Of a stretch of DNA of 64,000 nucleotides, positions 5,680 through 55,079 are shown in pieces; position 1 is the first letter of the stretch; each line of letters begins with the position of its first letter. A model generated the notes under the pieces. The model did not search any database. It was not told the DNA's origin and worked only from the letters and a program-made list of their open reading frames with translations. Location: contig LFCN01000006.1 of NCBI GenBank assembly GCA_001189075.1, forward strand, positions 321,746-385,745, in the 5' to 3' direction. The DNA comes from Parcubacteria bacterium C7867-004. Its GTDB lineage: Bacteria > Patescibacteriota > Minisyncoccia > Phycocordibacterales > Phycocordibacteraceae. Position numbers and translations under genes: made by a program.

Positions 5680-5784
5680 TATGAAGAGAATATAGCAGAG
5701 ATTATGTCTTCAGGGCACCTGCTGACGATTGACAGTCGAAGTCTCCGTGGTAAGGTCCGCGTGGAGTTTCGAAAGGTATAACCG

Positions 5785-6321
5785 ATGACAAAACGGATCG
5801 ACTGGACCAGGGTATATCGCTCCGGTATCACTGCCTTTGGGGGAGAGCTAGAGAAAGCGGGAATCCTATCGTCGCCTCAAGCGGGTGCGCACAGTTTCCT
5901 CAAGGTCGCCTCGATCGTCAGGATTGAGCGGCCGTTTCCGCCAAATGAGGAAGATGTCATACCGAAGGGCGGGCGTCTCGGCGTGGGTACGCGCGAACTC
6001 ATCGAGGGCGCGCCGTTCAACGACCAGACGGTGGCGTACCTCGCGATCTTGCAGCTGACGACCAGGTCGTCTCCTGCGCGCTATCTCCCCGAGATCGCGG
6101 CCTTTCCTGACGTGGCGCCGTGGATGCTCCAGCACATCCTCACGCCCGATAAAGACCATAGGAACTACCTCCGTCAGCAAGCCACCAGCTGCGTGATCAA
6201 CGGCACAGAGCTCTGGATGCGAAAGGTCGGCGTGGGGACATGGGAGATCGAAGAGCCGCGTCCGCACTTCTCAAGAAGCGAAGGCGGACTCGTGATCGTT
6301 CCGATCGCGTTCCCGATCTGA
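5785..6321 (+). CDS. hypothetical protein
   Basis: 178-aa ORF. Upstream TTGACA..TAAGGT promoter-like pair and AAAGG RBS. Followed by a hairpin terminator. Confidence 0.45.
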   Translation: MTKRIDWTRVYRSGITAFGGELEKAGILSSPQAGAHSFLKVASIVRIERPFPPNEEDVIPKGGRLGVGTRELIEGAPFNDQTVAYLAILQLTTRSSPARYLPEIAAFPDVAPWMLQHILTPDKDHRNYLRQQATSCVINGTELWMRKVGVGTWEIEEPRPHFSRSEGGLVIVPIAFPI

Positions 6322-6326
6322 GATGA

Positions 6327-6357
6327 GTCCGCGGAAGGGATTTCCGCGGGCTTTTTA
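6327..6357 (+). terminator. rho-independent terminator (copy 1 of a near-identical hairpin pair)
   Basis: GTCCGCGGAAGGGATTTCCGCGGGCTTTTTAT. 8-bp stem CCGCGGAA/TTCCGCGG followed by a T-run. Confidence 0.65.
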
Positions 6358-6488
6358 TATGTCATCTCAATGATTCCATTGCCAATTCTTATTTATATTA
6401 TACAATGATTCGGGATACCGTACACCGCTTCGGTTGGGCAACAAGCGGAAGAGGTCTTTCCATAACGCACATCCATCTGTGAGTAACG

Positions 6489-6995
6489 ATGATGCACACC
6501 AGTCATGGAGAGCCGCCGTCGCGTCATCTTCTGGTGATGCACGGCATACTGGTCCGAGTAACGACGGGCGATCAACTGCATCCGCTGACGTTTTTCGAGA
6601 ACCCTGCGTTCTCGTGCGCTGACGCATTCTGGGAGGCACTTGCTCGTTCGGCTCCTCGACCCGGTTTTACGCCCGGAACACCGCACCAGTTTGGCCACGA
6701 GCATTTGAAAAAGCGTTTCCAAGGAGACGCGGTTTCACCGCTCATTCCGCCATCGTGGACCTTGATGAACTTCTGGCACCTCGCCGAGCTCTTGAAACCC
6801 GCGTATACACGGGCACTTCATGAGCAGGAAGATCATTTGCTACCCTTCGGAAATCGGATAATCTGCCCGACCGACGCTGGTTTGGTTCAGATGAGCCATG
6901 TAGAAACGTGGCGCATGGATATGGTCGCCGAGGGGAAGCTCGACTTCCCGGCCCATACGCACCTGGTCGGACTCATCAACAAAGACATCCATTGA
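6489..6995 (+). CDS. hypothetical protein
   Basis: 168-aa ORF with balanced amino-acid composition. Preceded by an AT-rich promoter-like stretch (6360-6420). Stop TGA lies 16 nt before the next ORF's ATG. Confidence 0.35.
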   Translation: MMHTSHGEPPSRHLLVMHGILVRVTTGDQLHPLTFFENPAFSCADAFWEALARSAPRPGFTPGTPHQFGHEHLKKRFQGDAVSPLIPPSWTLMNFWHLAELLKPAYTRALHEQEDHLLPFGNRIICPTDAGLVQMSHVETWRMDMVAEGKLDFPAHTHLVGLINKDIH

Positions 6996-7010
6996 TTGCA
7001 AGGAGTTGCA

Positions 7011-7166
7011 ATGACGTTCAAATCGCTACCGTCACCCGATCCTCCGTTGACGGAGGGGCCGGGGCATCTCTGGGGAGTGCCGATGCCGCTGACTCCGCGC
7101 GGAGAAGAGGGCCCGCACTATCAGATGCCCGCCTTCAAGAAAGCCAAACGTCGCAAACGGCCCTAA
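7011..7166 (+). CDS. small hypothetical protein (51 aa, basic C-terminus KKAKRRKRP)
   Basis: Not in the supplied ORF track because it is under 60 aa. ATG at 7011 is preceded by a consensus AAGGAG Shine-Dalgarno at 6999-7004. TAA at 7164-7166 is followed immediately by a terminator hairpin. Translation: MTFKSLPSPDPPLTEGPGHLWGVPMPLTPRGEEGPHYQMPAFKKAKRRKRP. Confidence 0.4.
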   Translation: MTFKSLPSPDPPLTEGPGHLWGVPMPLTPRGEEGPHYQMPAFKKAKRRKRP

Positions 7167-7171
7167 GGGGT

Positions 7172-7209
7172 CCTGTCCGCGGAAGCGATTCCGCGGACTT
7201 TTCTTTTAT
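7172..7209 (+). terminator. rho-independent terminator (copy 2 of a near-identical hairpin pair)
   Basis: GTCCGCGGAAGCGATTCCGCGGAC followed by TTTTCTTTTAT. About 90% identical over ~35 nt to the hairpin at 6327-6357. Confidence 0.65.
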
Positions 7210-8378
7210 GTAAGTGCGAGGTTCCCGTTTGCTATCATCGTTTGGGAATTGGCGAAGTCATTGTGAAGCGCGCGATAGTAGCCAGCGATGGCGATCATGA
7301 TCGCGTTATCAGTCGTATACGCCCGATCTGGAAGGAAGAGCGCCACCTCCGGATACTCCTCACTGATCTTCTGTGCGAAATACCGACGAAGATGCGTATT
7401 TGCAGAAACGCCACCACCAAGCGCAAGCGTCTTCGCTCCCGTCTCCTCAAGGGCTCGTGCGGTCTTTTTCCAGAGTACCTCCGCGACCGCGTCCTCGAAC
7501 GCATGCGCAAGCTGCTCCTTCTCAAGCTCAGATACTTCTTTTCCTTTTACGAGATACATGACCGCGGTCTTGAGGCCGGAGAACGAAAAATCACAATGCG
7601 GATCAGTAATCATCGGACGCGGCAGCTTGAATGGATTGGTTCCCGTATCCTCTCGGTTACGTTCGGCAAGCTTTGAAATCTCGGGACCTCCGGGATAGGG
7701 AAGACCGAGCATGCGTGCAACCTTGTCGAAGGCTTCGCCAACCGCGTCGTCACGGGTCTGTCCGATGAGTCGATAGGAAAGCCAGGGGTCCATGGAAACG
7801 AGTTCGGTGTGTCCGCCCGAGATAAGCAGACCGAGCACGGGAAGCCCGATATCTTTTATTACTAGTTCGCCATCAGTTTCTATAACAAGTGAGGAGAGCA
7901 GGTGACCTTCCATATGGTTCACGCCTATGAGCGGCTTGTTCCATGCGAGCGAGAGTGCTTTCGCGAAGTTAACGCCAACCCAAAGGGCAGGCTCGAGGCC
8001 TGGACCATGCGTTACGGCAATCGCATCGATATCCGGAATCTCGCTTTCCTTAAGGAATTCGAGTAATTGTTCTGCGAGCTCGAACTCTCGAGACAGGAGC
8101 TCGCCGAGCGTAGTGGTAAGTTCTTCAGAAAGTGCCTGCGTATCCTCATGCAGAAGTTCTGCTTCCTCAAGCGCAGCACCAAGAATAGGAACGAGATTCT
8201 TCGCGTGCTCGCGCTTAGCCATCATAGGAAAGACCCCGCCGTACTCCTTATGGATATCGATCTGCGAGAGTAGCGCGTTGCCGAGTACGCGGAAGTTAGC
8301 CAGACGCTCGTCACCCGAACACTCCAGTATCGAAATAGCGGTCTCGTCGCACGAGGTCTCAATCGCGAGTATCTTCAT
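7206..8378 (-). CDS. tsaD: tRNA N6-adenosine threonylcarbamoyltransferase TsaD (Kae1/Gcp family)
   Basis: MKILAIETSCDETAISIL.. N-terminus, YGGVFP, GVNHMEGH metal-binding motif, GGVSAN. Contains an acidic helical insert of about 38 aa (EDTQALSEELTTTLGELLSREFELAEQLLEFLKESEIP) relative to canonical TsaD. Confidence 0.85.
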   Translation of the reverse strand: MKILAIETSCDETAISILECSGDERLANFRVLGNALLSQIDIHKEYGGVFPMMAKREHAKNLVPILGAALEEAELLHEDTQALSEELTTTLGELLSREFELAEQLLEFLKESEIPDIDAIAVTHGPGLEPALWVGVNFAKALSLAWNKPLIGVNHMEGHLLSSLVIETDGELVIKDIGLPVLGLLISGGHTELVSMDPWLSYRLIGQTRDDAVGEAFDKVARMLGLPYPGGPEISKLAERNREDTGTNPFKLPRPMITDPHCDFSFSGLKTAVMYLVKGKEVSELEKEQLAHAFEDAVAEVLWKKTARALEETGAKTLALGGGVSANTHLRRYFAQKISEEYPEVALFLPDRAYTTDNAIMIAIAGYYRALHNDFANSQTMIANGNLALT

Positions 8379-9220: not shown

Positions 9221-11436
<2,216 letters not shown>

Positions 11437-15612: not shown

Positions 15613-16848
15613 ATGAACGAGATACGGGTGCGGTATACTGGCCTAGCTATGCCGTTTCCTCCAAAGCCCGCCCCTTGTGCCGAATGCGGCGACGGAGCGA
15701 TATTCCACCGGACGACCTACATAAGCATCGTCATCGACGAGTTCCTTTCGCCACTCACGATGCCTAATCCGTTCCTCAGGGGTTTCGCGAAACTGGTCTA
15801 CAAGATCGAGCGGAAGGTAACGCCGCATCTTCTGAACGCGATGATGGATCGGGGCATGGCTCGCCGCGTCACTAAGCACGACGATGATACGCAGCTTCTC
15901 GCGCAGATGCTCTGGAATGAAGCGAAGGAGCGGGGTATCGAGGTAGCGGAATTCCGCCTCTTCAATCTGCCCCGCAACATATTCGTTGCGAAGTATCCGA
16001 ATGGAAGAGATATCGCCTATGAAGGCATACCAGCTCCCGTAGCGGATCTCGATCGTGTTCCGTGGATGGATAACAAAGATGTACTCAAGAAGAAGTTCCG
16101 TGCGCTGGGACTCCCTATTGCCCGAGGTGGCGCGGTATCCAACCTCAAAGAGGCGAAGAAGCTCTTCGCGACGCTCACACCCCCGGTTATAGCAAAACCC
16201 TCCTCAGGGTCAGGATCGAGGCATACGACGCTGCATGTGATGGATGAGGAGGGGCTCGAGAGAGCATTCCTTATTGGTAAGCAAGTTGCTCCTAAGGTCG
16301 TGATTGAGGAGGAGCTCGTTGGGCCGGTGTATAGAGCCACGGTAGTCAACGGACGCTTTGCAGCTGCGCTCAGGCGTGATCAGCCGTATGTGGTTGGGGA
16401 CGGGGTGCATACCGTCGAGGACTTGGTTGCTATCGCGAACGAGCACCCGAAGCGGTCGGGACCGTATTTCCATAAGATGAAACTTGATGAGACGGCGCTC
16501 GAGGAGCTCCGGTGGCAGGATCTTACGCCATCGAGCATTCTTCCTGAGGGGAAGCGAGCACTGCTGCATCAGAAGATAAACTGGAGCGTCGGCGGTACAA
16601 CGGCAGACGTAACCGATGACGTGCATCCGGACAATATCGAACTGTTCGAAGAAGTAGCGAGGGTTTTGAAGGCTCCTATCGTCGGACTCGATTTCATAAT
16701 CGAAGATATCAGCCGCTCGTGGAAAGAGCAGGAGCGATGCGGCATCCTCGAGTGCAACAGCATGCCATTCTTCGACAATCATCATCTGCCGTTCGAAGGG
16801 AAGCCGCGAAATGTAGCGGCACTCATCTGGGATATGAACGAGGAATAA
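15613..16848 (+). CDS. ATP-grasp domain protein (RimK/cyanophycin-synthetase-like ligase)
   Basis: 411 aa. ATP-grasp-like central and C-terminal segments (VIAKPSSGSGSRHTTL..VIEEELVGPVYRATVVNG..IVGLDFIIEDI). N-terminal ~150 aa of unknown fold. Confidence 0.45.
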   Translation: MNEIRVRYTGLAMPFPPKPAPCAECGDGAIFHRTTYISIVIDEFLSPLTMPNPFLRGFAKLVYKIERKVTPHLLNAMMDRGMARRVTKHDDDTQLLAQMLWNEAKERGIEVAEFRLFNLPRNIFVAKYPNGRDIAYEGIPAPVADLDRVPWMDNKDVLKKKFRALGLPIARGGAVSNLKEAKKLFATLTPPVIAKPSSGSGSRHTTLHVMDEEGLERAFLIGKQVAPKVVIEEELVGPVYRATVVNGRFAAALRRDQPYVVGDGVHTVEDLVAIANEHPKRSGPYFHKMKLDETALEELRWQDLTPSSILPEGKRALLHQKINWSVGGTTADVTDDVHPDNIELFEEVARVLKAPIVGLDFIIEDISRSWKEQERCGILECNSMPFFDNHHLPFEGKPRNVAALIWDMNEE

Positions 16849-22711: not shown

Positions 22712-23875
22712 TTACGCTACGAGCTTGAGGCGGTCTATAAGACCATCGAGCGGCAGGAAGATCTCGGTGTGGGTGGAGCGCTCCCGGAGGATCACATTGC
22801 GCTCGAGTGCCTCTTTTCGTCCCATGATGAGGAGGTATTGCGGGTCGGCAAGGTCCGCCAGGCGCATCTGCTCTGAAAGCGAAGCGACGCCCATGGCTTG
22901 GGTAAGCGGGATGCGGGCACGGCGGAGGTCGTCAGCCATCTTCATGCTCTCGCGCTTGGCTTCGTCACCGATATGCACGAAGACGAAGCGAGGCGCTCCG
23001 CGCTCTTTCACGGGCGTGACCTGTTCGCGTCCGTCGGAGGCTATGCGGATAACTGCGCCTACCGAATGCACGCCGCTCTTGAAGAACGGGCGCGTAAGAT
23101 CATTGTAGCGGGAGCCCCAGGCGGTCCCGTCCGGCGTCTCAACCGTGAAGCAAGTCTCGGTCCAAGAGGCACCCCGGGAAAGCAGGCTCGGGACGAGCTC
23201 GTACGGCGTGTCGGTGGTCTCAAGATACTCGAGTACCGCCTCGAAGTGCTTGCGGCTCGCTTCCGAGAGGTGATCGGTCGGGCTCGGCATGCCGTCCGCC
23301 TCTTCCTTCATGCAGGCGAGGAGCTCCGCGGCTTCGAATACTTCGCCCTGGCGCGCACGCTCCACGCAATCGGTCGGAAGGATCGGTCCGTGTTTGCGGA
23401 AGAATTGGGTAAGCTCCCGCGCAAAGCGGCTGCGCGTCTCGCGATCGCCCATACTGTTCAATTTCAGATGCGGCTCGGACTTGGAAAGGTCGCCGAGCAG
23501 GGAACGCACGGTGCGGATGAGAACCGCGTCAGCAATAGCGTGCTCCACGCCGAGCACATGGAACTGTATGAGAATCTGCTTCGGTGCGGGACGCCCTGCA
23601 GCGATGTTCGTGTGCCACAGAAAGAGCGGCTGAGTATTAGATGGCGTGATGCCGGCATCACGCACCTGTTTCAGGAGCGAGACAACCTCGCGCGCACTCG
23701 GATCAAGAGCTTCGAGATTGAGTCCGTCGGGATAGGGACCGCGAGCGCCTTTCCCGCGGTTAGCGAGCGCGAGTTGCGAGAGAGGGGTGAATCCATAATA
23801 GTTTCCGACTGCGTGTGCGCGCTTGAGGATGTCGCTCGGTTCACGAACGGCGCGATGTGCAGTGGCGGTACTCAT
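22712..23875 (-). CDS. histidyl-tRNA synthetase-like class II aaRS (divergent)
   Basis: N-terminal GNYYGFTPL, QFHVLGVE (compare HisRS QFHQLGCE), LKLNSMGDRETR (compare LELNSIGSLEAR), and a C-terminal anticodon-binding-like domain PQYLLIMGRKEALERNVILRE. Motif-2 arginines and the RPEGT segment appear substituted. Confidence 0.5.
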   Translation of the reverse strand: MSTATAHRAVREPSDILKRAHAVGNYYGFTPLSQLALANRGKGARGPYPDGLNLEALDPSAREVVSLLKQVRDAGITPSNTQPLFLWHTNIAAGRPAPKQILIQFHVLGVEHAIADAVLIRTVRSLLGDLSKSEPHLKLNSMGDRETRSRFARELTQFFRKHGPILPTDCVERARQGEVFEAAELLACMKEEADGMPSPTDHLSEASRKHFEAVLEYLETTDTPYELVPSLLSRGASWTETCFTVETPDGTAWGSRYNDLTRPFFKSGVHSVGAVIRIASDGREQVTPVKERGAPRFVFVHIGDEAKRESMKMADDLRRARIPLTQAMGVASLSEQMRLADLADPQYLLIMGRKEALERNVILRERSTHTEIFLPLDGLIDRLKLVA

Positions 23876-24423
23876 TGGATTTCGGTAACGGCTCCAGGAA
23901 GGACACCCGTCTTTCCGGCAGGAAGCAGGCGGATGTACGCGCGGCCCATGAGATCTTCCTTCGGAAGGACGCCCCAGGTGCGCGAGTCCGAGCTGCGCGG
24001 ACGATTGTCGCCCATAACGAAGTACTGATCGGTGCCGAGGCTGCGATCGAGCGTGTAGGTAGCGTCTTCTGCTACGACATAGGATTCATCGAGCTCGATC
24101 TCCATGCCATCGGTCTTGGTGATGCTCGTCTTACCTTTGTTTATGTGAACGGTCTCACCGGGAAGGCCGATGATGCGCTTTATATAGAAGACTTTCGGGT
24201 TTATCGGATAGCGGAACACGACGACATCGCCGCGTTTCGGATTCTCGAGACGGTAGGTGAGCTGGTCGACGATGAGATAGTCGCCGCTCTCGAACGTCGG
24301 GAACATGCTGTCTCCCTCAACGACGAATGGCTGCGCAACGAACACGCGTAGTGGCGCGACGATGATAAGGGCAAGGATTGCGAGAAAGAAAATCTCTTTG
24401 AACGCACCCCCGGGAACTTTCAT
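23872..24423 (-). CDS. lepB: signal peptidase I
   Basis: N-terminal TM helix, catalytic Ser box EGDSMFPTF, Lys box YIKRIIGLPGETV, C-terminal GDNRPRSSDSR. Confidence 0.85.
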   Translation of the reverse strand: MKVPGGAFKEIFFLAILALIIVAPLRVFVAQPFVVEGDSMFPTFESGDYLIVDQLTYRLENPKRGDVVVFRYPINPKVFYIKRIIGLPGETVHINKGKTSITKTDGMEIELDESYVVAEDATYTLDRSLGTDQYFVMGDNRPRSSDSRTWGVLPKEDLMGRAYIRLLPAGKTGVLPGAVTEIQ

Positions 24424-28028: not shown

Positions 28029-28138
28029 CAACGTGTCGAGGTGGGTATAAAACGACAAAAGGCTTCCGGTGAGGAAGTCTTTGTACTTGATCCGCAAGCG
28101 AATCAAAGAAAGTTCATAGAAAACCGATGAAGGGCGGG

Positions 28139-28162
28139 TCGGGGGTGGCGCTGGGCCACCCC
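28139..28162 (-). terminator. hairpin terminator downstream of the lipoprotein gene
   Basis: GGGGGTGGC-GCTGG-GCCACCCCC with a perfect 9-bp stem. The minus strand continues with a U-rich tract. Confidence 0.4.
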
Positions 28163-28176
28163 CTCTTCTCCGCGGT

Positions 28177-28557
28177 TCAGGCCGTCATGTGGCCGGAGTC
28201 GTCGGCGCCGCCCAGGTGCACGTGGCCGATGCGTTCGCTCGGCTGCCCGGTGTCGGTCGGCGACGTTTCGGTGATGCCGGAGCCGCTGGCGGTGTCGCCG
28301 AGGCCGTTGTCGATCATCGCCACGTGGCCGCTGTCGGAGCCGTTGCCCACCAGGTCGCTGCGCAGGTCCTTCATCGAGGCGCCGCCCGCGGTGATGCCGG
28401 AGCCGTCGTCCACGCTGATCAGGCCGCTGCCGCCGCTGTCGATGCCGGTCACGCGCGTCGGGTTCTGCAGGGTGCCGAAGCCGGCGGCCATGGAGCGATC
28501 GATACCTGAGCATGCGAGAGCCATCGCGGCCCCCATCATCAAATTCATGGTCTTCAT
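28177..28557 (-). CDS. small secreted lipoprotein, Gly/Ser/Asp-rich with short internal repeats
   Basis: 126 aa. Signal peptide with lipobox MKTMNLMMGAAMALAC-SG. Mature part has ~18-aa repeats (GIDSGGSGLISVDDGSGITAGGAS / SGHVAMIDNGLGDTASGSG / GHVHLGGADDSGHMTA). AGGA RBS 9 nt upstream. Lies in a ~70% GC island. Confidence 0.5.
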   Translation of the reverse strand: MKTMNLMMGAAMALACSGIDRSMAAGFGTLQNPTRVTGIDSGGSGLISVDDGSGITAGGASMKDLRSDLVGNGSDSGHVAMIDNGLGDTASGSGITETSPTDTGQPSERIGHVHLGGADDSGHMTA

Positions 28558-28625
28558 GTCGAAGTCCTCGCTTGCAAGTCGCCTCGTCCATTCGCTCGGA
28601 GTGAGCTAAGGCCGGCAACTTCGGA

Positions 28626-28794: not shown

Positions 28795-28810
28795 CGCGCT
28801 TGCTCAGAGC

Positions 28811-29128
28811 CTATTCCGGCCCGCCGCCGCCCGGCGTCTGCGCCTCGGCAGTGACCGCGTCATCGCCATCGCCGCCATTGACCGACTCGGCCGGCGGATC
28901 GGCTTCAGCGGCCGGCTCGGGCTCGACAGCAGCTTCCGTCGCCGCGACCTCGACGACATCGCTCGCGGCGCCGCCCTTGGTGGAGTCGAGCCCGGCCTCG
29001 CTGGCGTCGGTCGTGTTGTCGCCGCCGCCCGCGCCGGTCTCGACGACGTCGCCGCCCGAGTCTTCGCCCATGGTCATGGAGCAGACGCTGCTGAAGAGGT
29101 GCATCTTGTCGATCGCACGCTTGTCCAT
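28811..29128 (-). CDS. small acidic low-complexity protein (105 aa)
   Basis: Start MDKRAIDKMHLFSSV with AAGGA RBS. Rich in Gly/Asp/Glu/Thr/Ala (..GEDSGGDVVETGAGGGDNTTDASEAGLDST..EPEPAAEADPPAE..GGGGPE). Same island and promoter architecture as the lipoprotein gene. Confidence 0.4.
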   Translation of the reverse strand: MDKRAIDKMHLFSSVCSMTMGEDSGGDVVETGAGGGDNTTDASEAGLDSTKGGAASDVVEVAATEAAVEPEPAAEADPPAESVNGGDGDDAVTAEAQTPGGGGPE

Positions 29129-29177
29129 CGATCTTTGTCCTTGTGTTTGCCCCCAGTTAAGTCCGGGTCGCGAAAGC

Positions 29178-29206
29178 AAAATACCACCCGTATGTAGTAT
29201 TGTCAA
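29178..29206 (-). promoter_or_regulatory. sigma70-like promoter (TTGACA-17-TATTTT) with shared motif TTGACAATA..GGTGGTA
   Basis: Minus strand reads TTGACAATACTACATACGGGTGGTATTTT about 50 nt upstream of the ATG at 29128. Confidence 0.45.
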
Positions 29207-29280
29207 TTTGCGGCCGGCGGAAGGGAATTCGAACGCGTGCGCTCGCGACATGAAGCGCCCTTCATGGTAAAATTGAGGTA

Positions 29281-34679: not shown

Positions 34680-35096
34680 ATGAGACGAATCCTCTCCTCA
34701 CTGCTACTCGCCTTTCTGTGCTTTGTGAGTATTGTTCCTGCAATTGCGCTCGCGCAGACGGGCGGACAGCCATCGGGAACGGCTCCTACTGGCGGCCAGC
34801 CGTCGGGAACCCCGCCTCCATCGAATGCGGGCTCTGGTCTTGTTAATCCACTCAACAATATCGACTCCCTGCCGGATTTCCTGAACGCGATACTTAATGC
34901 GGTTGTAGACATCGGCAGTATCATCCTGGTCCTCGCGCTGGTCTATACCGGCTTCTTGTTCGTTGCCGCACAGGGAAATCAGGAGAAACTGAGCAGTGCC
35001 CGGAACGCGCTTATATGGACCGTGGTCGGCGGACTCGTTTTGCTCGGCGCTAAGGCGATCGGTCTTGTCATCGAAGCAACCGTTAAGACCTTATGA
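34680..35096 (+). CDS. VirB2/TrbC-like pilin-family small membrane protein (paralog 1)
   Basis: Signal peptide, low-complexity GGQPSGT repeat, then two hydrophobic helices separated by a short polar loop (..LVLALVYTGFLFVAAQGNQEKLSSARNALIWTVVGGLVLL..). Confidence 0.5.
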   Translation: MRRILSSLLLAFLCFVSIVPAIALAQTGGQPSGTAPTGGQPSGTPPPSNAGSGLVNPLNNIDSLPDFLNAILNAVVDIGSIILVLALVYTGFLFVAAQGNQEKLSSARNALIWTVVGGLVLLGAKAIGLVIEATVKTL

Positions 35097-35404
35097 TCAA
35101 GTTCTCTCGGATAGCGTTGCTTGCGGGAACGTTAGTTCTCCTTCCTGAAGTAGCAAGTGCAGCGGAGACTTTTAAGAGTCTTACTGCGAAGATAGTTACC
35201 CTTGTGAACACTGCGGTTGTTCCTCTTATCTACGCCATAGCCATAGTTATCTTCCTCATAGGCATGCTCAGGTTCTTCTTTCTCGGTGGGGAGGAAGGCC
35301 GTGAGAAAGGGAAACAGTTCATGCTCTGGGGCATCATCGCGCTTGTGGTGATGTTCTCGGTCTGGGGCATAGTCAGGCTTCTGCTCACTGCTCTTCCGGG
35401 GTAG
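35093..35404 (+). CDS. VirB2/TrbC-like pilin-family small membrane protein (paralog 2)
   Basis: Signal peptide plus PLIYAIAIVIFLIGMLRFFFLGGEEGREKGKQFMLWGIIALVVMFSVWG. ATGA start/stop overlap with paralog 1. Confidence 0.55.
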   Translation: MIKFSRIALLAGTLVLLPEVASAAETFKSLTAKIVTLVNTAVVPLIYAIAIVIFLIGMLRFFFLGGEEGREKGKQFMLWGIIALVVMFSVWGIVRLLLTALPG

Positions 35405-35453
35405 GTGCATAACATTCCGTCAAACTCATTCCGCCTGCTACCTTTATACATAT

Positions 35454-35867
35454 ATGAAAACATCACGATTTCTGGTTTCCGCGAGTGCGCTCGCTCTCGC
35501 GCTTAGTGCTCCGATTATAGCGTTCGCGCAGAGCGGCAAGATAGGAGGCTCGAGGCTCGATACGTTCCTTCCGAGTATCGTCGATTTCATAAACTCGATA
35601 CTCATACCGTTCATCTTCGCAATCGCTTTCATCGTATTCATCTGGGGTATCTTCCAGTATTTCATCGCGGGTGGCGCGAATGAGGAACAGCGCGACAAGG
35701 GGAAGCAGCTGGCGGTCTGGGGCATCATCGCATTCTTCGTAATGATCTCCGTCTGGGGCATGATCAACTTGTTGGTCGATACCTTCGGTTTCGGTGGACA
35801 GAATGCGCCGAAGCTTCCGACTTTCAAGCCAGCCGCGATGCTCTCAGTGCCGCTTGATGCTGCGTAG
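35454..35867 (+). CDS. VirB2/TrbC-like pilin-family small membrane protein (paralog 3)
   Basis: Signal peptide plus IPFIFAIAFIVFIWGIFQYFIAGGANEEQRDKGKQLAVWGIIAFFVMISVWG. Confidence 0.55.
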   Translation: MKTSRFLVSASALALALSAPIIAFAQSGKIGGSRLDTFLPSIVDFINSILIPFIFAIAFIVFIWGIFQYFIAGGANEEQRDKGKQLAVWGIIAFFVMISVWGMINLLVDTFGFGGQNAPKLPTFKPAAMLSVPLDAA

Positions 35868-35961
35868 CGTTTTCCCCACGCGTCCTCAGGCTCTATTGAC
35901 GTTCACTCATTCCAGTCTATCCTTAGCTTTAGTAGCGAATCGTTACCACTAACCACCCATC

Positions 35962-36327
35962 ATGAAGAAACTCGGATATCTCGTTCTCGCGTTCGTTCTC
36001 TCGTTCCCGGTCTCGGCATTCGCCCAGATTAATGCGACCAATGCTCAGACGTTCAGCAACGGCGCAATCAACCTCATCAACAACGTATTTATCCCGCTCG
36101 TCTTCGCAATCGCTTTCATCGTATTCATCTGGGGAGTATTCCAGTACTTCATCGCTGGCGGACACGACGAGGAGAAGCGCGAGACCGGAAAGAGCCTCAT
36201 GCTCTGGGGCATCATTGGATTCTTCATTATGGTCTCCGTCTGGGGCCTCGTGAACATCCTCCGCGGAACCATTCAGGTTAACAACAGCGTTCCGGACTAC
36301 GCTCCGAACCTCCCAACAAACCAGTAG
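35962..36327 (+). CDS. VirB2/TrbC-like pilin-family small membrane protein (paralog 4)
   Basis: Signal peptide plus IPLVFAIAFIVFIWGVFQYFIAGGHDEEKRETGKSLMLWGIIGFFIMVSVWG. Shares a 34-nt identical stretch with paralog 3. Confidence 0.55.
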   Translation: MKKLGYLVLAFVLSFPVSAFAQINATNAQTFSNGAINLINNVFIPLVFAIAFIVFIWGVFQYFIAGGHDEEKRETGKSLMLWGIIGFFIMVSVWGLVNILRGTIQVNNSVPDYAPNLPTNQ

Positions 36328-39653: not shown

Positions 39654-39658
39654 GTTGG

Positions 39659-39745
39659 TACCGGGAGTGGGACTTGAACCCACATGAGCCGTTAGGCTCA
39701 CGACGTTTTAAGCGTCGCGTGTATAACCAATTCCACCATCCCGGC
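39659..39745 (-). tRNA. tRNA-Leu (anticodon TAA), long variable arm
   Basis: Reverse complement: GCCGGGA-TG-..-CGACG-CTTAAAA-CGTCG-(variable arm TGAGCCTAACGGCTCAT)-GTGGG-TTCAAGT-CCCAC-TCCCGGT-A. Confidence 0.75.
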
Positions 39746-40226
39746 GCTTCAGTCGAATGTTACTGCCTCTATGCGTTAGTTTCAAACTATGACAATTAGG
39801 GCAAAGAATACGAAGGTTCTCTAATCTATTGTCCGTATTGTCTCCATTTATGTGGTCCAGCTCAATTGGAAGTCTCCCGTCAATACTTTTTTCTGCCCAT
39901 CCACATTCCTCACACTCAGGTTTCTTTAATCCAGCATTAAATAATCGCCTTTTAAGATTCCGCCTCGATCTTCGGCTTCCTGCGATAAAGAGCTCCTCAA
40001 GCGAGTATATCGGTTGCCTAGGAATGCTTATGCCTTTATGCCAAGCCTGACCTTTGAAATGAGATGTATCGATCTGGAATTTGCGAATATAGAAATAGTA
40101 TTGAGCATAATTCCCTCCTGCGGGAACTAAACCCAATTTAGAGATCACTTCTCGAACAGTTATTGACTCAAGCACCGCTTTTCGGATATTAGATTCTTCC
40201 CATCGTCCAGGAATACGAGCGGTCAT
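39708..40226 (-). CDS. HNH homing-endonuclease-like protein
   Basis: C-terminal HNH motif LDHINGDNTDNRLENLRILCPNCHS with Zn-ribbon Cys pair PECEECGW. N-terminal helix-turn-helix-like segment. Region is about 40% GC. 3' end overlaps the tRNA-Leu(TAA) 5' end by about 38 nt. Confidence 0.7.
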   Translation of the reverse strand: MTARIPGRWEESNIRKAVLESITVREVISKLGLVPAGGNYAQYYFYIRKFQIDTSHFKGQAWHKGISIPRQPIYSLEELFIAGSRRSRRNLKRRLFNAGLKKPECEECGWAEKSIDGRLPIELDHINGDNTDNRLENLRILCPNCHSLKLTHRGSNIRLKRRDGGIGYTRDA

Positions 40227-48889: not shown

Positions 48890-50650
48890 ATGCGCAAAGC
48901 GCTGTTGCTCGTCGCTATAGTCGGCTTATGCGTCGCAGCGGTGCTTGCGGTACACCTTTTCAAAAAGGATTTGCAGACCGTCTACGAGGGGACGCATTAT
49001 GCTTCCCACATGCAGGAGCACTTCTATGGGGATATGGCTTCCGCAGATACGGTATTCACGCCTGGTATCAAGGGCGCCATCGTTTCGCACCATCTCCTCG
49101 TTGCGGATCATATAGCGCAAACGTTCGCGTCGATGACCAACGATCAGGTTAAGACGGTGGTTATCATCGGACCGGATCATTTCTCCCGTGCCTCGGGAAA
49201 AGTATCAGTATCGCGGTATCCGTACGAGACACCATGGGGCAGGGTTGAGCCTGATACGGAAGTGATCGATGGCCTCATTAGCGCGAGGCTCGCCGAGGAG
49301 AACGAATATGTCTTCGAGATAGAGCACTCGATCGGCAGTCTCGCTCCGTATGTCAGGTATCATTTCCCGAACGCGAGACTGGTACCGATCGTTGTCGATC
49401 GCTCTACGTCACCTGAGGACGCAGTAAAGCTGGGAACATATCTAGCAGCTAATCTTGATGAGGGTGCGCTCGTTATCGCAAGCGTTGATTTCTCCCATCA
49501 CCTCGGGACCACGGCCGCCGATTTCCATGACGCGAAGAGTGTTGAGACCGTTCGTGCGTTCGACTTCGCATCGCTCGCGCGGCTTGAGGTGGATAGTCCA
49601 GCGTCCCTATACGCAGTCCTTACGTATCTTGAAGCGAAAGGCGCACAACGCCCCGTTATGTTCGATACGACGAACTCTGCGCGTTTCCTCGGCATTCCGG
49701 ATTCTGATGATGTAACGTCGTACCTCTTCGCTACGTTCGCTGAGGGACCAAAGGAGTCGACGGGCGCGGTTAGCATGTTTGCAGCAGGGGACCTGATGCT
49801 CGGAAGGGATGTCGCGAAGAAGATGGCGCAAGGAACCGACCTGTTCGAACGGTTCCGGGGAGTCGAAGGGAATTTCCTTCGCGGATTCGATATGTTCATT
49901 GCGAATCTCGAAGGGCCGATTACCAATTCGACTGAGTGCCAAAAGAAAGAACTCTCATTCTCCTTCAATCCTTCGGTTACTCCATACCTGAAAAAGAACG
50001 GGCTTACGCATGTAACGCTCGCTAATAATCATTCGAATGATTGTTTCGCAGCCGGTATCTCTGATACCAAGCAGAACCTCACGGAACAGGGCATTCGGTA
50101 TGTGGGTGGCGGAACGCTCGCTGAAAGTACCCGGACGGAAAAGGTCGCCGGGAAGCGAATCGCCATACTCGGCATTGATCGGACCGTCCAGCCGGTTGCT
50201 CCTGGGCTCGTGTATGCACATCTGCGCTCACTTGAAGAGAGTCATGACTATACGATCGTGGAGGTGCACTGGGGGCTCGAATACGAGCTCACCGAGTCGA
50301 CGGATCAGCGTACGCTCGCGCACGGCATGATAGACAGCGGGGCGGACGTCATCATCGGCCACCATCCGCATGTCGTGCAGCCGGTAGAGTCGTATGCAGG
50401 GAAGCCGATATTCTATTCCCTGGGAAATTTCGTATTTGATCAGTTCGGGAAAGAGACCAATACCGGCATGGCGGTCGGTCTGGTGCTCGCTGATGCGGCG
50501 ATAAGCACGTACCTGTTCCCGTACACGATAAACAGTGCGCATCAGCCGGACTTGATGGAGTACAAGGAAGCACAGGCGTATTGCAGCACTCAGGATATTC
50601 GTATCGAACCGTTCGGAAAGGATGCGTGCGCACTGCGCCTCGCTCGTTAA
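48890..50650 (+). CDS. fusion protein: Memo1/AmmeMemoRadiSam-B-like domain + CapA (PGA_cap) metallophosphatase-like domain
   Basis: N-terminal TM anchor. Residues about 60-270 contain GAIVSHHLLVADH..VVIIGPDHF (Memo-family His cluster). Residues about 290-586 contain MFAAGDLMLGRDVA..THVTLANNHSNDC..IIGHHPHV, typical of the CapA/PGA_cap family. Confidence 0.55.
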   Translation: MRKALLLVAIVGLCVAAVLAVHLFKKDLQTVYEGTHYASHMQEHFYGDMASADTVFTPGIKGAIVSHHLLVADHIAQTFASMTNDQVKTVVIIGPDHFSRASGKVSVSRYPYETPWGRVEPDTEVIDGLISARLAEENEYVFEIEHSIGSLAPYVRYHFPNARLVPIVVDRSTSPEDAVKLGTYLAANLDEGALVIASVDFSHHLGTTAADFHDAKSVETVRAFDFASLARLEVDSPASLYAVLTYLEAKGAQRPVMFDTTNSARFLGIPDSDDVTSYLFATFAEGPKESTGAVSMFAAGDLMLGRDVAKKMAQGTDLFERFRGVEGNFLRGFDMFIANLEGPITNSTECQKKELSFSFNPSVTPYLKKNGLTHVTLANNHSNDCFAAGISDTKQNLTEQGIRYVGGGTLAESTRTEKVAGKRIAILGIDRTVQPVAPGLVYAHLRSLEESHDYTIVEVHWGLEYELTESTDQRTLAHGMIDSGADVIIGHHPHVVQPVESYAGKPIFYSLGNFVFDQFGKETNTGMAVGLVLADAAISTYLFPYTINSAHQPDLMEYKEAQAYCSTQDIRIEPFGKDACALRLAR

Positions 50651-50673
50651 AATATTCTTCAGTACGGGAAAAG

Positions 50674-50702
50674 CGGAAAGGCCCGTCCGAAGACGAGCCT
50701 TT
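50674..50702 (+). terminator. putative hairpin terminator
   Basis: GGAAAGGC-(CCGTCCGAAGACGA)-GCCTTTCC after the stop of the preceding gene. No strong T-run follows. Confidence 0.35.
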
Positions 50703-50944
50703 CCGGCGCGCTTACGAACATGTTGGCCGAGGCCGACTCGTTCGCAAGCACCATAGGATACTACAGGAGAGTGATTTTCTCGTCAAGGGATTTTAGGGAG
50801 GAAATGAGGAGGGTGTGGATAACGTGTCGTTCATACTGGGACACTTCAGTTTTATGATTCGTGTGTTATAGTGTAGTGGGGACCGACGCTAACGCATCGG
50901 TAGCCTAATTGTTGAAACTCGCGACCTCAAAGGGGTTTTATTGG

Positions 50945-51682
50945 ATGATACGAACAAGATTGGTGGGCTGCTTCGGCGCGGCCATGGTTCTCGCGCTTGC
51001 GGCGAATGCCCGGGCGGCGACGAACCTCATCGTGAACGGGGGCTTCGAAGCTCCGCTCGCGGGCAACGGCGCCTACTATCAGGCGTTCGGCGGCCAGGAC
51101 ATAGGTGGCTGGACGGTTACTGGGCGGGACATCCTCCTGCTCGACCGCAACTACACGGAGACCGGCCTGGTCTTCAATTCAGCTGCGGGCGATCAGGCGG
51201 CTGACATTACCGGCGCCGGCAACACCAGCGAAGAGGACGGGCTCGAGCAGACGGTGCTCGTCGACCCCGGTCAGCTGTATAGGCTGTCCTTCGACGTCGG
51301 GAACGCGGCGCCGTTCGGCGTGAATTCGTGGGCCTACACGCTCCCGAGCACGGTCCGACTCACCTTCGATGATGGCGATCCTGGGCCGGTGGTGTTCCTC
51401 ACCACCGGCCCGCTCGAGTTCACCAATGCCATCGACAACCCGTCGGGCAGTCCGGGGATCAACTTCCAGAGGTTCTCGGTCGACTATCTCGGCACGAGCA
51501 CCGGTCAGGTGAAGATCCGGTTCTTCAACGGCGTGGGCAACGACAACTACGTCGGCCTCGACAACGTCGTGTTCGAGAAGGTCGCTGCGGCGGTGCCGGA
51601 ACCCTCGTCGTGGGCGCTGATGATCATCGGCTTCGGCGGAATGGGCGCCATGATTCGGCGTCGCCGACTGCAAGCGGCCTAG
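50945..51682 (+). CDS. PEP-CTERM sorting-domain protein
   Basis: Signal peptide (LVGCFGAAMVLALAANARA). N-terminal NGGFE..GW beta-sandwich-like domain. C-terminal VPEPSSWALMIIGFGGMGAMIRRRR is a textbook PEP-CTERM motif (VPEP, hydrophobic helix, basic tail). Lies in an approximately 66% GC island. Confidence 0.6.
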   Translation: MIRTRLVGCFGAAMVLALAANARAATNLIVNGGFEAPLAGNGAYYQAFGGQDIGGWTVTGRDILLLDRNYTETGLVFNSAAGDQAADITGAGNTSEEDGLEQTVLVDPGQLYRLSFDVGNAAPFGVNSWAYTLPSTVRLTFDDGDPGPVVFLTTGPLEFTNAIDNPSGSPGINFQRFSVDYLGTSTGQVKIRFFNGVGNDNYVGLDNVVFEKVAAAVPEPSSWALMIIGFGGMGAMIRRRRLQAA

Positions 51683-51716
51683 CGCCACCAACCAGTTCGA
51701 CTCGTTCGGACTACAA

Positions 51717-51749
51717 GCCTCGACGGCAACGTCGGGGTTTTTATTTTTG
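51717..51749. terminator. bidirectional rho-independent terminator
   Basis: CCTCGACG-GCAA-CGTCGGGG followed by TTTTTATTTTTG. Confidence 0.65.
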
Positions 51750-52274
51750 TATGAAATGCCGGCGTGCTTCTTCCGCGCCTTTAACAAGGAGCTCGAGAGA
51801 CTCGTGCAGGGAAGCTATGTACTCATCTCCGTGCCCAGCAAGGTTAGTGCGAAGTTCATGGTCGCTGACCCAGCGCAGACCCGTTACTTCATTTTCTGGG
51901 TAGGTAAACCCGCTTAGGTCTTTGTCGACAACGGCGAAGTACCACTGCACGAAATAGTATCCGGTACCAGGTTTTCGCAGCACTTTGGGTCCTGAGAGAA
52001 GTTCTTGCACGGAGAGGGTAATACCAATCTCCTCCTGGGTCTCTTTGATGATGTTTATCTCGTAGGTCTCACCTTCCTCAACGGTCCCGGCAACCGCAGG
52101 ACCCCATTTCCCTGGACTGTGTCGTTTGGTAAGCGCACGCTGCGCCAATAGGTATTCGCCTTTTGAGTTAGTTATCCAGAGCGCAGAAACGCGGGATATA
52201 TCGCCCTTGGTCAAGTCGTCGCGCTCCTTCAGACCGATAACGGTATCGTCACGGTCAACGACGGGGATTTTCAT
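51741..52274 (-). CDS. NUDIX hydrolase
   Basis: Nudix box GKWGPAVAGTVEEGETYEINIIKETQEEIGI (Gx5Ex7REUxEExGU pattern). Confidence 0.75.
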   Translation of the reverse strand: MKIPVVDRDDTVIGLKERDDLTKGDISRVSALWITNSKGEYLLAQRALTKRHSPGKWGPAVAGTVEEGETYEINIIKETQEEIGITLSVQELLSGPKVLRKPGTGYYFVQWYFAVVDKDLSGFTYPENEVTGLRWVSDHELRTNLAGHGDEYIASLHESLELLVKGAEEARRHFIQK

Positions 52275-52319: not shown

Positions 52320-52354
52320 TCAAAAAGCCGCTTTGTAGCGGCTTTTTGATTTTG
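52320..52354. terminator. bidirectional rho-independent terminator
   Basis: AAAAAGCCGC-TTTGTA-GCGGCTTTTT flanked by A- and T-runs. Confidence 0.7.
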
Positions 52355-52425
52355 CGGGCCCACTAGGAATCGAACCTAGGACGTCGGGTTTGGAATCCGA
52401 AGTTATACCATTTAACTACAGGCCC
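52355..52425 (-). tRNA. tRNA-Trp (anticodon CCA)
   Basis: Reverse complement: GGGCCTG-TA-GTTA-AATGGTA-TAAC-T-TCGGA-TTCCAAA-CCCGA-CGTC-CTAGG-TTCGATT-CCTAG-TGGGCCC-G. One A-C mismatch at the base of the anticodon stem. G73 discriminator is typical of Trp. Confidence 0.65.
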
Positions 52426-52532: not shown

Positions 52533-53564
52533 ATGTATCGGCTTTGGGTCACCGCAGTCTTTGCGTGCGTAATCGCATTGTCCGTACCTGCATACGTATC
52601 TGCCGCTGATCTTCCGCTTCTTACACCCGGTTGGCACATCGTTCCGGATGCGCATGACCTTGATTCGAGTTGCCCGGTAGGTGCACCGCTCGGGTTTGGC
52701 GGCGTACTCCAACTCATCCAGAACCTGATGAATGCCGGTATCTCTATCGGCATCGTCATATCCATCCTGGTTATCGTCTTCTCTGGTTTGCTGTGGATGC
52801 TCACGCCGTTCAATCCCGAGAATCATTCGCAGGCGAAGAAAGTCCTTACGAATGCGGTCATAGGCCTGCTCATTATCCTTTCGGCGTGGCTCATCGTGGA
52901 TTTCGTGATGAAGGTCTTGTATTCGGGTACCGGAGCCGATTCGGGAAAGTTCGGACCATGGAATAAGATACTCGTCGGCGGGAACAAATGCGTAACGGCA
53001 AGCACTGACCTTAAGCCGCTTTTCAGCGGAGACCTATTTACGATCCCAAGCACTGGACCGGCTAACGTTCCTGTGGACGCGACTCAGATAGCAACCGCGC
53101 GAGTAGGTACGGGAGGATGTTCGCCCGAATATATCACCACCATGGCAGGAAAGTCAGGCTCGCCCATAACCCCCTCGAACGCCGCGACGCTTTCTTGCAT
53201 CGCGGTCCATGAGAGTACGTGCGGTACGAGGCTCCTCAATTACAACTGGGGAAAGGGATCAAGTGCGGCAGGACTTCTGCAGGTAACCATCGACAGCCAT
53301 TCTTCCTTCTTTGAGAACGCCACCTGCAGGGCTGCCGCTGGGGTAAGTCCGACGACGGTCCTTAACTGCACGGCAGGATTCAATAAGGGAAATGCGGTTC
53401 CCGGAAGCGCTATAGCAGAGCGCTGCACAAGAGCCGCGAAGGATCCGGCATGCAATGTCGCGCTGGCGCTGCAGGTTCTCAAGTCGGAGGGGTATGGAGC
53501 ATGGACCCATGACCCGAAAAGCAATAAGCAGGAGGCGTGCATCGCCCGCTTCGGGAATGGGTAG
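52533..53564 (+). CDS. VirB2/TrbC-like pilin-type N-terminal module fused to a lytic transglycosylase (SLT-like) domain
   Basis: Signal peptide. Double-TM pilin-like segment GFGGVLQLIQNLMNAGISIGIVISILVIVFSGLLWMLTPFNPENHSQAKKVLTNAVIGLLIILSAWLIVDFVMK. C-terminal domain has the SLT hallmarks AVHESTCG (catalytic E-S) and SSAAGLLQV (GLMQ-like). Confidence 0.55.
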   Translation: MYRLWVTAVFACVIALSVPAYVSAADLPLLTPGWHIVPDAHDLDSSCPVGAPLGFGGVLQLIQNLMNAGISIGIVISILVIVFSGLLWMLTPFNPENHSQAKKVLTNAVIGLLIILSAWLIVDFVMKVLYSGTGADSGKFGPWNKILVGGNKCVTASTDLKPLFSGDLFTIPSTGPANVPVDATQIATARVGTGGCSPEYITTMAGKSGSPITPSNAATLSCIAVHESTCGTRLLNYNWGKGSSAAGLLQVTIDSHSSFFENATCRAAAGVSPTTVLNCTAGFNKGNAVPGSAIAERCTRAAKDPACNVALALQVLKSEGYGAWTHDPKSNKQEACIARFGNG

Positions 53565-54146: not shown

Positions 54147-55079
54147 ATGCGTATCCTCTCTCTATTCGTTCCGGTGCTGAGCGCGATAGCATTCGTGCCA
54201 GCGACGGCGTTTGCGGCGAATGCTACGTTCTTCGGGCCGCTCGTTCCTGAGGCGTGCAGGTCTTGTCCGTGCGGGTTCGCGGGTGTCCTGCAGATCATCC
54301 AGAACTTCATGAACCTGGGAATCTCGCTCTCGATCATCATTGCGACGATCATCATCGCGGCAGGCGGGTTCATGTACATCCTGTCCTCAACCAATCCGGA
54401 GAGCCGCAGCAAGGCGAACAAGATGCTTATGAATGCGGTCATCGGTCTGCTTATCGTCCTTTCCGCGTGGCTCATCGTGGACTTCGTCATGAAGAGTCTG
54501 TATGGCGGGCAGTTCGGTCCTTGGAACTCTATCCTTCGAGGCGGAGACGAGTGCGTAGTCTCACGGCCGACCCAAAGGCTTTTCAGCGGGGATCTCTTCG
54601 TGCTGCCCGGCGGGATTACGGGCGGCGGCGTGGAGCAAGGTACGGGAAACGGAACCGGTCCGAACTGCCCGGTTCCAGCTGAATCAACTATGGTAGCGTT
54701 CCCGGCCGAGGCGGTTGCCGGCGGGTCCGGAAAAGCGACCCCTGACACCGTCGCAAATTTCATGGCGATGCGCGAGGCTGCAAAGAAGGATGGAATCGTT
54801 CTGAAAGTAAGCAGTGCCTATCGATCGGATGCAGCTCAAGTGTCGCTCTGGAATAGTCTCGGCAGAGACACGAGCAAGGTCGCGAAGCCCTGCTCGCTGG
54901 GCGGCGGCGGCTCCAATCACAACTCCGGCGCAGCGGTAGATATAGAGGTCGGATGCGGCAATCCGAGCAGCAATTGCAATACGGCCACCTATAAGTGGCT
55001 TAAGGCCAACGGTGGCAAGTGGAATTTCCGAAACGCTCTTCCTACCGATCCTCCGCATTGGTCGCCGAGCGGTACCTAG
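54147..55079 (+). CDS. VirB2/TrbC-like pilin-type N-terminal module fused to an M15 (VanY/D-Ala-D-Ala carboxypeptidase-like) peptidase domain
   Basis: Signal peptide. Pilin-like segment GFAGVLQIIQNFMNLGISLSIIIATIIIAAGGFMYILSSTNPESRSKANKMLMNAVIGLLIVLSAWLIVDFVMK. C-terminal LAS-metallopeptidase hallmarks SAYRS, SNHNSGAAVDI (H..D) and DPPHWS. Confidence 0.55.
   Translation: MRILSLFVPVLSAIAFVPATAFAANATFFGPLVPEACRSCPCGFAGVLQIIQNFMNLGISLSIIIATIIIAAGGFMYILSSTNPESRSKANKMLMNAVIGLLIVLSAWLIVDFVMKSLYGGQFGPWNSILRGGDECVVSRPTQRLFSGDLFVLPGGITGGGVEQGTGNGTGPNCPVPAESTMVAFPAEAVAGGSGKATPDTVANFMAMREAAKKDGIVLKVSSAYRSDAAQVSLWNSLGRDTSKVAKPCSLGGGGSNHNSGAAVDIEVGCGNPSSNCNTATYKWLKANGGKWNFRNALPTDPPHWSPSGT

Follow-up and report, generated by a model that had tools for sequence, protein, structure and literature searches.

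A PEPxxWA-CTERM DUF642 protein of alphaproteobacterial type encoded in a Parcubacteria genome

PEP-CTERM proteins have been described as confined to bacteria that possess an outer membrane, exopolysaccharide (EPS) genes and a homologue of EpsH; the genomes that encode them contain a median of 8 PEP-CTERM proteins each, and an EpsH homologue is always present (Haft 2006, PMC1569441). Here, a gene encoding a protein with such a C-terminal signal (50945-51682) is analyzed in a 64-kb stretch of DNA from Parcubacteria bacterium C7867-004, a member of the Candidate Phyla Radiation (CPR); this whole stretch of 64,000 nucleotides is referred to as the window, and all features lie on its plus strand unless stated otherwise. 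The protein shares with the substrates of the exosortase EpsH/XrtA system (PMC1569441) a C-terminal signal that passes the respective hidden Markov models (HMMs) and an N-terminal signal peptide, whereas none of the defining features that accompany that system in a genome (numerous paralogues, a homologue of EpsH, an EPS locus and an outer membrane) is observed in the 64 kb. The LPXTG/sortase and PGF-CTERM/archaeosortase systems offer an analogous order of motif, transmembrane (TM) helix and basic cluster on secreted surface proteins in cells without an outer membrane, but their motifs and enzymes differ from those of the window protein, and the likeness is an analogy only.

The closest described proteins are the PEPxxWA-CTERM DUF642 proteins of Caulobacteraceae and Sphingomonadales (P0002, P0003 and L006-L008), which have the same three-part architecture, a length of ~220-245 residues and 44-67% identity to the window protein. 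These proteins likewise carry the NGGFE, D(L/I)TGAGNT and GLDNV motifs and a PEPxxWALMI.GFG..G....RRRR tail, whereas the window protein is distinguished by its Parcubacterium host, a unique insertion of ~10 residues and a longer linker preceding the PEP motif. The protein is an alphaproteobacterial PEPxxWA-CTERM DUF642 type in an unexpected host and not a new system. A verified PEP-CTERM protein in a Parcubacteria genome of 0.78 Mb constitutes a clean exception to the reported restriction to bacteria with an outer membrane, EPS genes and an exosortase (PMC1569441). A first-pass annotation, made from the sequence alone, had called the signal unexpected in a CPR-like genome, which agrees with the report of PEP-CTERM in outer-membrane bacteria only (Haft 2006, PMC1569441).

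The open reading frame (ORF) at 50909-51682 is confirmed, and its C-terminal end reads VPEPSSWALMIIGFGGMGAMIRRRRLQAA, with the stop codon at 51680-51682. When membership is taken as a score at or above the curated cut-off of an HMM, three models recognize the tail as PEP-CTERM: NF035944 (PEPxxWA-CTERM; 42.6 bits, cut-off 35, E 4e-11), TIGR02595 (26.1 bits, cut-off 16) and PF07589 (31 bits, cut-off 20.7). The canonical signal proposed in the first-pass annotation is thus borne out by three curated models, including TIGR02595, on which the proposal had been staked. The PEPxxWA-CTERM domain (VPEPSSWALMIIGFGGMGAMIRRR, 51593-51664) comprises the PEP motif, a TM helix and an Arg cluster, the fourth Arg of which (51665-51667) lies just beyond the HMM match. 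In the layout VPEP-SSWALMIIGFGGMGAMI-RRRR-LQAA, the PEP motif is followed by a hydrophobic helix (~14-20 residues being the criterion) and, at the very end of the protein, by a basic cluster whose Arg residues end 4 residues short of the stop. A C-terminal helix is placed at residues 220-244 in the AlphaFold2 model.

Three possible start codons compete within 50909-50984. The most likely start is ATG 50945, giving a product of 245 residues, rather than TTG 50909, because a Shine-Dalgarno-like AAGGGG motif is located 9 nt upstream of this ATG, the resulting protein begins with the MIRTR signal peptide, the N-termini of the homologues align with this start, and a product of 245 residues is predicted by the gene callers in four other assemblies. 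The GenBank model, AB199_02350, has 232 residues and starts at M26, inside the signal peptide, thereby removing it. This protein of Parcubacteria bacterium C7867-004 is 100% identical to the window protein over its 232 residues, which bears out the CPR-like character that had been assigned to the DNA. Read from ATG 50945, the N-terminus is MIRTR-LVGCFGAAMVLALAA-NARA/A (the slash marks the predicted cleavage site), a classical signal peptide pattern that aligns with the signal peptides of the homologues and has a mean Kyte-Doolittle hydropathy of 2.35 in the h-region. The predicted signal peptide covers residues 1-24 (MIRTRLVGCFGAAMVLALAANARA, 50945-51016) with cleavage after ARA; the cleavable signal peptide noted earlier is recovered in this succession of MIRTR, a hydrophobic core and ANARA/A, and a signal peptidase I gene is present in the window at 23872-24423.

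The region between the signal peptide and the tail (51017-51592) is assigned by HMMs, AlphaFold2 and Foldseek to a DUF642/HpiC1-like/choice-of-anchor-C domain with a beta-sandwich resembling carbohydrate-binding modules (CBMs). The NGGFE..GW domain of the first-pass annotation corresponds to PF22825 (HpiC1-like), which the ectodomain matches above the cut-off (33.1 bits, cut-off 27). The scores are just below the cut-off for PF04862 (DUF642; 26.2 bits, cut-off 27) and below it for CBM_4_9 (23.1 bits, cut-off 25.9) and TIGR04362 (choice-of-anchor C; 42.5 bits, cut-off 120, N-terminal half only); the homologues have precomputed PF04862 and PF22825 annotations.

The AlphaFold2 model, based on an alignment of 21 sequences, has a predicted local distance difference test (pLDDT) score of 82.7 and contains an all-beta sandwich that spans residues ~27-212. 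A Foldseek comparison with the PDB returns CBM4, CBM16, CBM22 and the hyaluronan-binding module of a pneumococcal lyase (4d0q) as the top matches, and also gingipain adhesin domains and the ligand-binding domain of EphA2, with a probability of 1.0, target-normalised TM-scores of 0.57-0.65 and sequence identities of 10-17%. Because of the matches to CBM and hyaluronan-binding modules, the passenger is taken as a CBM-like domain without a catalytic partner, which probably binds a glycan or another ligand. The likeness to CBM4, CBM16, CBM22, 4d0q and the HpiC1-type Stig cyclases lies in the beta-jelly-roll fold, with PF22825 above its cut-off, but extends to the level of the fold only, and the window protein has no attached catalytic domain. 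The ~10-residue insertion (DDGDPGPVVFLTTGP, 51371-51415, residues ~143-157) is present in the Parcubacteria copy only and absent from the 20 aligned homologues; the confidence of the model is reduced around it.

The origin of the gene was addressed with 58 homologues from a collection of 5.8 billion proteins, a scan of the GTDB species representatives and a neighbor-joining (NJ) tree of 69 sequences. No CPR name besides that of the source protein is found among the 58 homologues, and no other full-length CPR homologue is found among the listed matches to the GTDB species representatives. The nearest relatives, P0002 (67% identity) and P0003 (62%), are located on contigs with a GC content of 62-63.5%, where their upstream neighbor is a nitroreductase that is 96% identical to proteins of Phenylobacterium sp. 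and 95% identical to a protein of a Caulobacteraceae bacterium. A further relative, P0004 (50% identity), lies in alphaproteobacterial synteny with Maf, InfA, UPF0262, HisD, DUF2948, MurA and a phytochrome-HWE kinase (HWE_HK). The best GTDB matches listed are from Sphingomonadales, Sphingomonadaceae and metagenome-assembled genomes (MAGs) of Alphaproteobacteria (44-46% identity), and weaker listed matches are from Armatimonadota, Acidobacteriota, Planctomycetota, Beta- and Gammaproteobacteria and others.

In the NJ tree, all 50 of 50 bootstraps make the window protein the sister of P0002 and P0003, and its position is inside the clade that contains L006-L008 and P0004. The tail subtype PEPxxWA[L/M]M..GFG....RRRR is common to Sphingomonadales and Phenylobacterium, whereas the homologues from other phyla have generic PEP-CTERM tails. 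Tails nearly identical to that of the window protein also occur on unrelated passenger domains: 26 of 28 positions agree in P0053, with P0056 and P0045 likewise close (e.g. AAVPEPASWALMILGFGGMGAMIRRRR), which fits the observation that PEP-CTERM tails are most alike within one lineage (Haft 2006, PMC1569441). Judging from these tails, P0053, P0056 and P0045 probably stem from the donor lineage. The best explanation suggested by the sequence comparisons is the transfer of a single gene from an alphaproteobacterium (Caulobacteraceae/Sphingomonadales-like) into the Parcubacterium, a direction that we infer. Among the origins considered in the first-pass annotation, horizontal acquisition is therefore the one favored by the bootstrap placement in the alphaproteobacterial clade and by the highest GC content and GC content at third codon positions (GC3) in the window, and the homology search, in the place of the BLAST taxonomy then proposed, puts the ORF among alphaproteobacterial relatives.

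The coding sequence has a GC content of 64.5% (61-66.5% in 200-nt segments) versus 56.8% for the window, and is the stretch of 738 nt with the highest GC content in the 64 kb. Its GC3 is 0.837, compared with a host mean of 0.67 and 0.75 in the nearest homologues, and both GC and GC3 rank first among the 45 genes of at least 150 residues (z about 2). The GC-rich island of ~66% reported earlier is real, but its measured value is 64.5% and its deviation is moderate, not extreme. Since GC3 exceeds both that of the host and that of the nearest homologues, the gene may be little ameliorated, which suggests an unsampled donor with a higher GC content.

In the ~200 bp upstream of the gene (50745-50944), the GC content is 46%, and a consensus scan detects a sigma-70-like promoter candidate in this stretch (TTCATA-17-TATGAT, 50830-50858) with 9 of 12 consensus matches. 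Downstream of the gene, a terminator-like hairpin of 11 pairs (51715-51740) begins 33 nt past the stop codon and is followed by TTATTTTT (fold z -2.6). This intrinsic-terminator-like hairpin and T-run (51715-51750), which overlap the NUDIX stop codon on the opposite strand, correspond to the terminator described in the first-pass annotation. A scan for cis-regulatory RNA with Rfam yields a sub-threshold ctRNA-like match on the terminator hairpin only.

The gene is flanked by two host genes, a Memo and PGA_cap (CapA-like) fusion upstream (48890-50650; PF01875, PF09587) and a NUDIX hydrolase downstream (51741-52274, minus strand; PF00293), the latter convergent with the PEP-CTERM gene. Similarity at the DNA level to the nearest homologues (68-70%) is limited to 51015-51660, so that the edges of the insert are not definable by homology. 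Candidate edges are provided by an exact direct repeat of 11 bp, CGACTCGTTCG (repeat D14), the left copy of which is located at 50734-50744 and the right copy at 51698-51708. The 964-bp unit delimited by these copies (50745-51708) consists of the ~200 bp of 46% GC DNA with the promoter-like site and of the gene. The two intergenic flanks share 11 nt or more in 0.13% of shuffles, and equally spaced pairs of window segments do so in 0.8% of cases.

A hairpin with arms of 14 nt and 93% complementarity (50674-50705; inverted repeat I3), probably a terminator, follows the Memo/PGA_cap gene, and a second hairpin predicted by folding (50710-50749) contains the left copy of CGACTCGTTCG in its 3' arm; the fold of 50651-50760 has an energy of -45 kcal/mol (z -3.9). 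The 964-bp unit is bounded exactly by the hairpins behind the Memo/PGA_cap gene on one side and, on the other, by the terminator that the PEP-CTERM and NUDIX genes have in common. This arrangement is suggestive of a microhomology-mediated or target-duplicating insertion into the terminator region of convergent genes, a mechanism that would be read from the repeat and its position. As for a vector, no homologue is found by tblastn against the PLSDB plasmids and the INPHARED phages.

The reading that we consider probable is that an alphaproteobacterial gene has been inserted between convergent housekeeping genes and that its tail functions as a plain membrane anchor displaying a domain of the glycan-binding type. 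A single alphaproteobacterial gene would have entered the Parcubacterium between the Memo/PGA_cap and NUDIX genes, and its product would be exported through the Sec pathway, followed by cleavage of the signal peptide. The tail, which in the donor lineage is the recognition signal of an exosortase, would act in the Parcubacterium as a C-terminal TM helix with an Arg-rich stop-transfer cluster. In the scheme of Haft 2006 (Fig. 4, PMC1569441), the C-terminal helix keeps a PEP-CTERM protein whose signal peptide has been cleaved in the membrane until the action of EpsH, and this anchored intermediate would be the end state in the Parcubacterium, with no exosortase acting on it. The CBM-like domain would be held at the outer surface of the cytoplasmic membrane as part of an adhesin-like protein and could have polysaccharide as its ligand, perhaps from an alphaproteobacterial partner.

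The locus represents a well-supported case of gene flow, probably recent, from Alphaproteobacteria to a CPR bacterium and a clean marker of horizontal gene transfer that may point to the lineage of a host or partner. It also provides a natural experiment, in that an exosortase signal is present where the enzyme itself is probably missing, and it calls for caution, as the annotation "PEP-CTERM protein" alone is no evidence of a sorting system in reduced genomes.

Several points weigh against insertion of an alphaproteobacterial gene whose product is membrane-anchored. In composition, the gene deviates moderately (z about 2), and the likelihood of its codon choice under host usage is ordinary (rank 35 of 45), as the host too favors GC-ending codons; GC and GC3 alone stand out. 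The closest homologue is just 67% identical, with a synonymous divergence (dS) above 1, so that the true donor is not among the sampled sequences and the divergence does not date the transfer. The 11-bp repeat (P about 0.001-0.008) was identified, and its significance estimated, post hoc. No CPR relative with an empty site is found among JGI metagenome contigs and the 5.8-billion-protein set with Memo/PGA_cap queries: the JGI relatives of Memo/PGA_cap are at most 39% identical and have another gene order, and of the closest relatives of the flank (60-63%), L082 is not syntenic downstream and the L083 contig ends ~100 bp past the gene. The four other assemblies that contain the locus are all 100% identical and may partly share one DNA sample. 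The search for a sorting system covered 64 kb of the ~780-kb genome, for which reason the protein can be called only a probable orphan. Finally, expression, membrane anchoring and carbohydrate binding are properties that we infer.

The main rival on function, which we regard as rather unlikely, is that the gene is real and was transferred but is inert cargo, unexpressed or useless and heading to decay. A lone orphan gene in a foreign cell context, with an un-ameliorated GC3 (0.84 compared with the host mean of 0.67), a lineage-specific insertion of ~10 residues in its domain and a slightly raised nonsynonymous divergence (dN) to the outgroup (0.44 for the window protein versus 0.38 for its sisters), is what such cargo might look like. 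The state of the gene argues otherwise: the ORF is intact and equipped with a signal peptide, an SD-like motif, a promoter-like site and a terminator, all 24 positions that are invariant in the 20 homologues are kept, and so are 28 of the 29 positions that are conserved at 90% or more. In pairwise comparison with its two nearest homologues, the gene has a dN/dS of ~0.2, which also argues against decay, although dS is saturated (>1) and the branch includes the history before the transfer.

A more specific, and distinctly improbable, extension of the membrane-anchor reading is a partnership in which an attached Parcubacterium took an EPS-associated protein from its host of the Caulobacteraceae/Sphingomonadales type and displays it to bind the exopolysaccharide of that host. 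The protein would be anchored by its unprocessed PEP-CTERM helix or, alternatively, would be processed by an unrecognised CPR enzyme. If true, this partnership would let a sequence point to the host of an uncultivated CPR lineage, and the protein would be the first of the PEP-CTERM type to work outside the context of diderm cells and exosortases.

The cells of Parcubacteria and other CPR bacteria are not known to have an outer membrane. Archaeosortases demonstrate that the exosortase superfamily can operate in cells of this kind, and the motif of the window protein is fully canonical and conserved, both of which would suit a working exosortase- or archaeosortase-like system elsewhere in the genome that has this protein as its substrate and processes it at PEP; the scans, moreover, covered only ~10% of the genome. 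The exosortase and archaeosortase families have no match among the scanned window proteins (Pfam and NCBIfam), all ORFs with multiple TM segments included, and five or more hydrophobic segments occur in three window proteins only, a DUF2914 protein, a PrsW protease and an ABC transporter. In the six-frame translation of the 64 kb, no second PEP-CTERM tail is recovered with a tail-specific HMM and a regular expression, and a single tail contrasts with the median of 8 per PEP-CTERM genome (PMC1569441). No EPS locus is present within the window.

The tail itself is of the alphaproteobacterial PEPxxWA subtype and would have been brought in with the gene, and the genome is reduced (779 kb), both of which also speak against a resident system. 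A literature search on exosortase or PEP-CTERM in Parcubacteria, Patescibacteria or CPR, and on PEPxxWA, found nothing relevant. Because of the null result in the window, the pattern described in Haft 2006 and the null result in the literature, the presence of the cognate enzyme is considered highly improbable. The protein is probably an orphan, that is, a substrate without its sorting system, in a genome from which exosortases would be absent altogether.

The first-pass annotation had also considered a contig chimera. In that case, a fragment of ~0.8-1 kb from a co-occurring alphaproteobacterium with high GC content would have been mis-stitched into a Parcubacteria scaffold. The source is a short-read metagenome assembly (IDBA_ud, 8-42x coverage), and the segment is the most GC-rich of the window and phylogenetically foreign, as would be expected of such an artifact. 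Nevertheless, the gene order Memo/PGA_cap, DUF642 plus PEP-CTERM (245 residues), NUDIX and T4SS_pilin is present in four other assembly records from other pipelines (GenBank, JGI and two Logan Sequence Read Archive runs), namely GCA_002398375.1 (DGYM01000008.1, 454 kb), JGI 3300001199 (a contig of 80.7 kb), Logan SRR5324954 and Logan SRR2043728, which are 100% identical to the window across 12.9-21.8 kb, both junctions included. These records were reached through the flanking Memo/PGA_cap protein, since look-ups of the exact 257- and 232-residue sequences gave no entry. CPR genes border the segment to its left and right, such that two false joins would be required; the window contains zero Ns, and the sole flanking repeat is that of 11 bp, which is shorter than the k-mers used by short-read assemblers such as IDBA_ud. 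Because two false joins would have to recur across several assemblers, a chimera is effectively excluded, and the PEP-CTERM gene is a genuine part of the Parcubacteria genome.

Vertical descent of the gene in the CPR lineage, or its movement from CPR bacteria to Alphaproteobacteria, draws on the presence of DUF642-like domains in the CPR proteins L036 and L056 but has a probability close to nil because of the tree, the tail subtype and the different architectures of these CPR proteins, which lack PEP-CTERM and are 34-35% identical over ~100 residues, while the full-length relatives are all from diderm phyla, the nearest clade is alphaproteobacterial, and the gene is seen in neither L082, which has unrelated genes downstream, nor L083, which ends ~100 bp past the flank gene. 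These CPR proteins, in L036 at 9806-11125 (Saccharibacteria) and in L056 at 5761-7872 (Paceibacterota), combine an NGGFE domain with a TasA/camelysin-type N-terminus (..FxDTETSxxN..).

The host genome, obtained by IDBA_ud assembly of metagenomic reads from Hanford groundwater (Nelson & Stegen 2015, PMC4508563), is a MAG of 6 scaffolds and 778,726 bp with 56% GC, in which the 232-residue model lies on a contig of 685,965 bp. The window, as judged from its gene content, is typical CPR housekeeping DNA, with genes for ValRS, TsaD, FtsZ/FtsA, signal peptidase I, GyrA, Alr, IF-2, ClpB, ParB, RelA/SpoT, TopA and DprA, in addition to 11 tRNAs. The Memo/PGA_cap fusion has more than 300 homologues, the named ones of which are from Parcubacteria, Pacebacteria, Kaiserbacteria and similar groups, and the relatives of the flanks lie on contigs with 33-48% GC. 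A tRNA-Trp gene (52354-52425, minus strand) is located beyond the NUDIX gene.

Small T4SS_pilin/TrbC-like proteins are encoded in a cluster near the PEP-CTERM gene, at 34680-36327, 52533-53564 and 54147-55079. In two larger proteins of this cluster, a pilin-like N-terminus is fused to a lysozyme-like or a VanY D,D-carboxypeptidase domain, and the proteins of the cluster are typical of surface or cell-wall-acting proteins of CPR bacteria. The other GC-rich island distinguished in the first-pass annotation, where it was counted as the first, has 72-73% GC at 28100-28600 and 28800-29100. Its only ORFs, at 28177-28557 and 28811-29251 of the minus strand, are of low complexity, rich in G, S, D, T and A, and match no family in Pfam or NCBIfam; the island may encode secreted low-complexity proteins or be non-coding DNA.

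A protein of 411 residues of the ATP-grasp type (15613-16848) matches cyanophycin synthetase in its central ~260 residues (E 1e-62), far under the equivalog cut-off, and has no Pfam match at E<=0.001. Additionally, an HNH endonuclease gene (39708-40226, minus strand) has 43% GC, a GC3 of 0.36 and the worst codon fit of the window, and abuts or overlaps a tRNA-Leu(taa) gene (39656-39745); from its composition and position, it looks like a separate mobile acquisition of low GC content.

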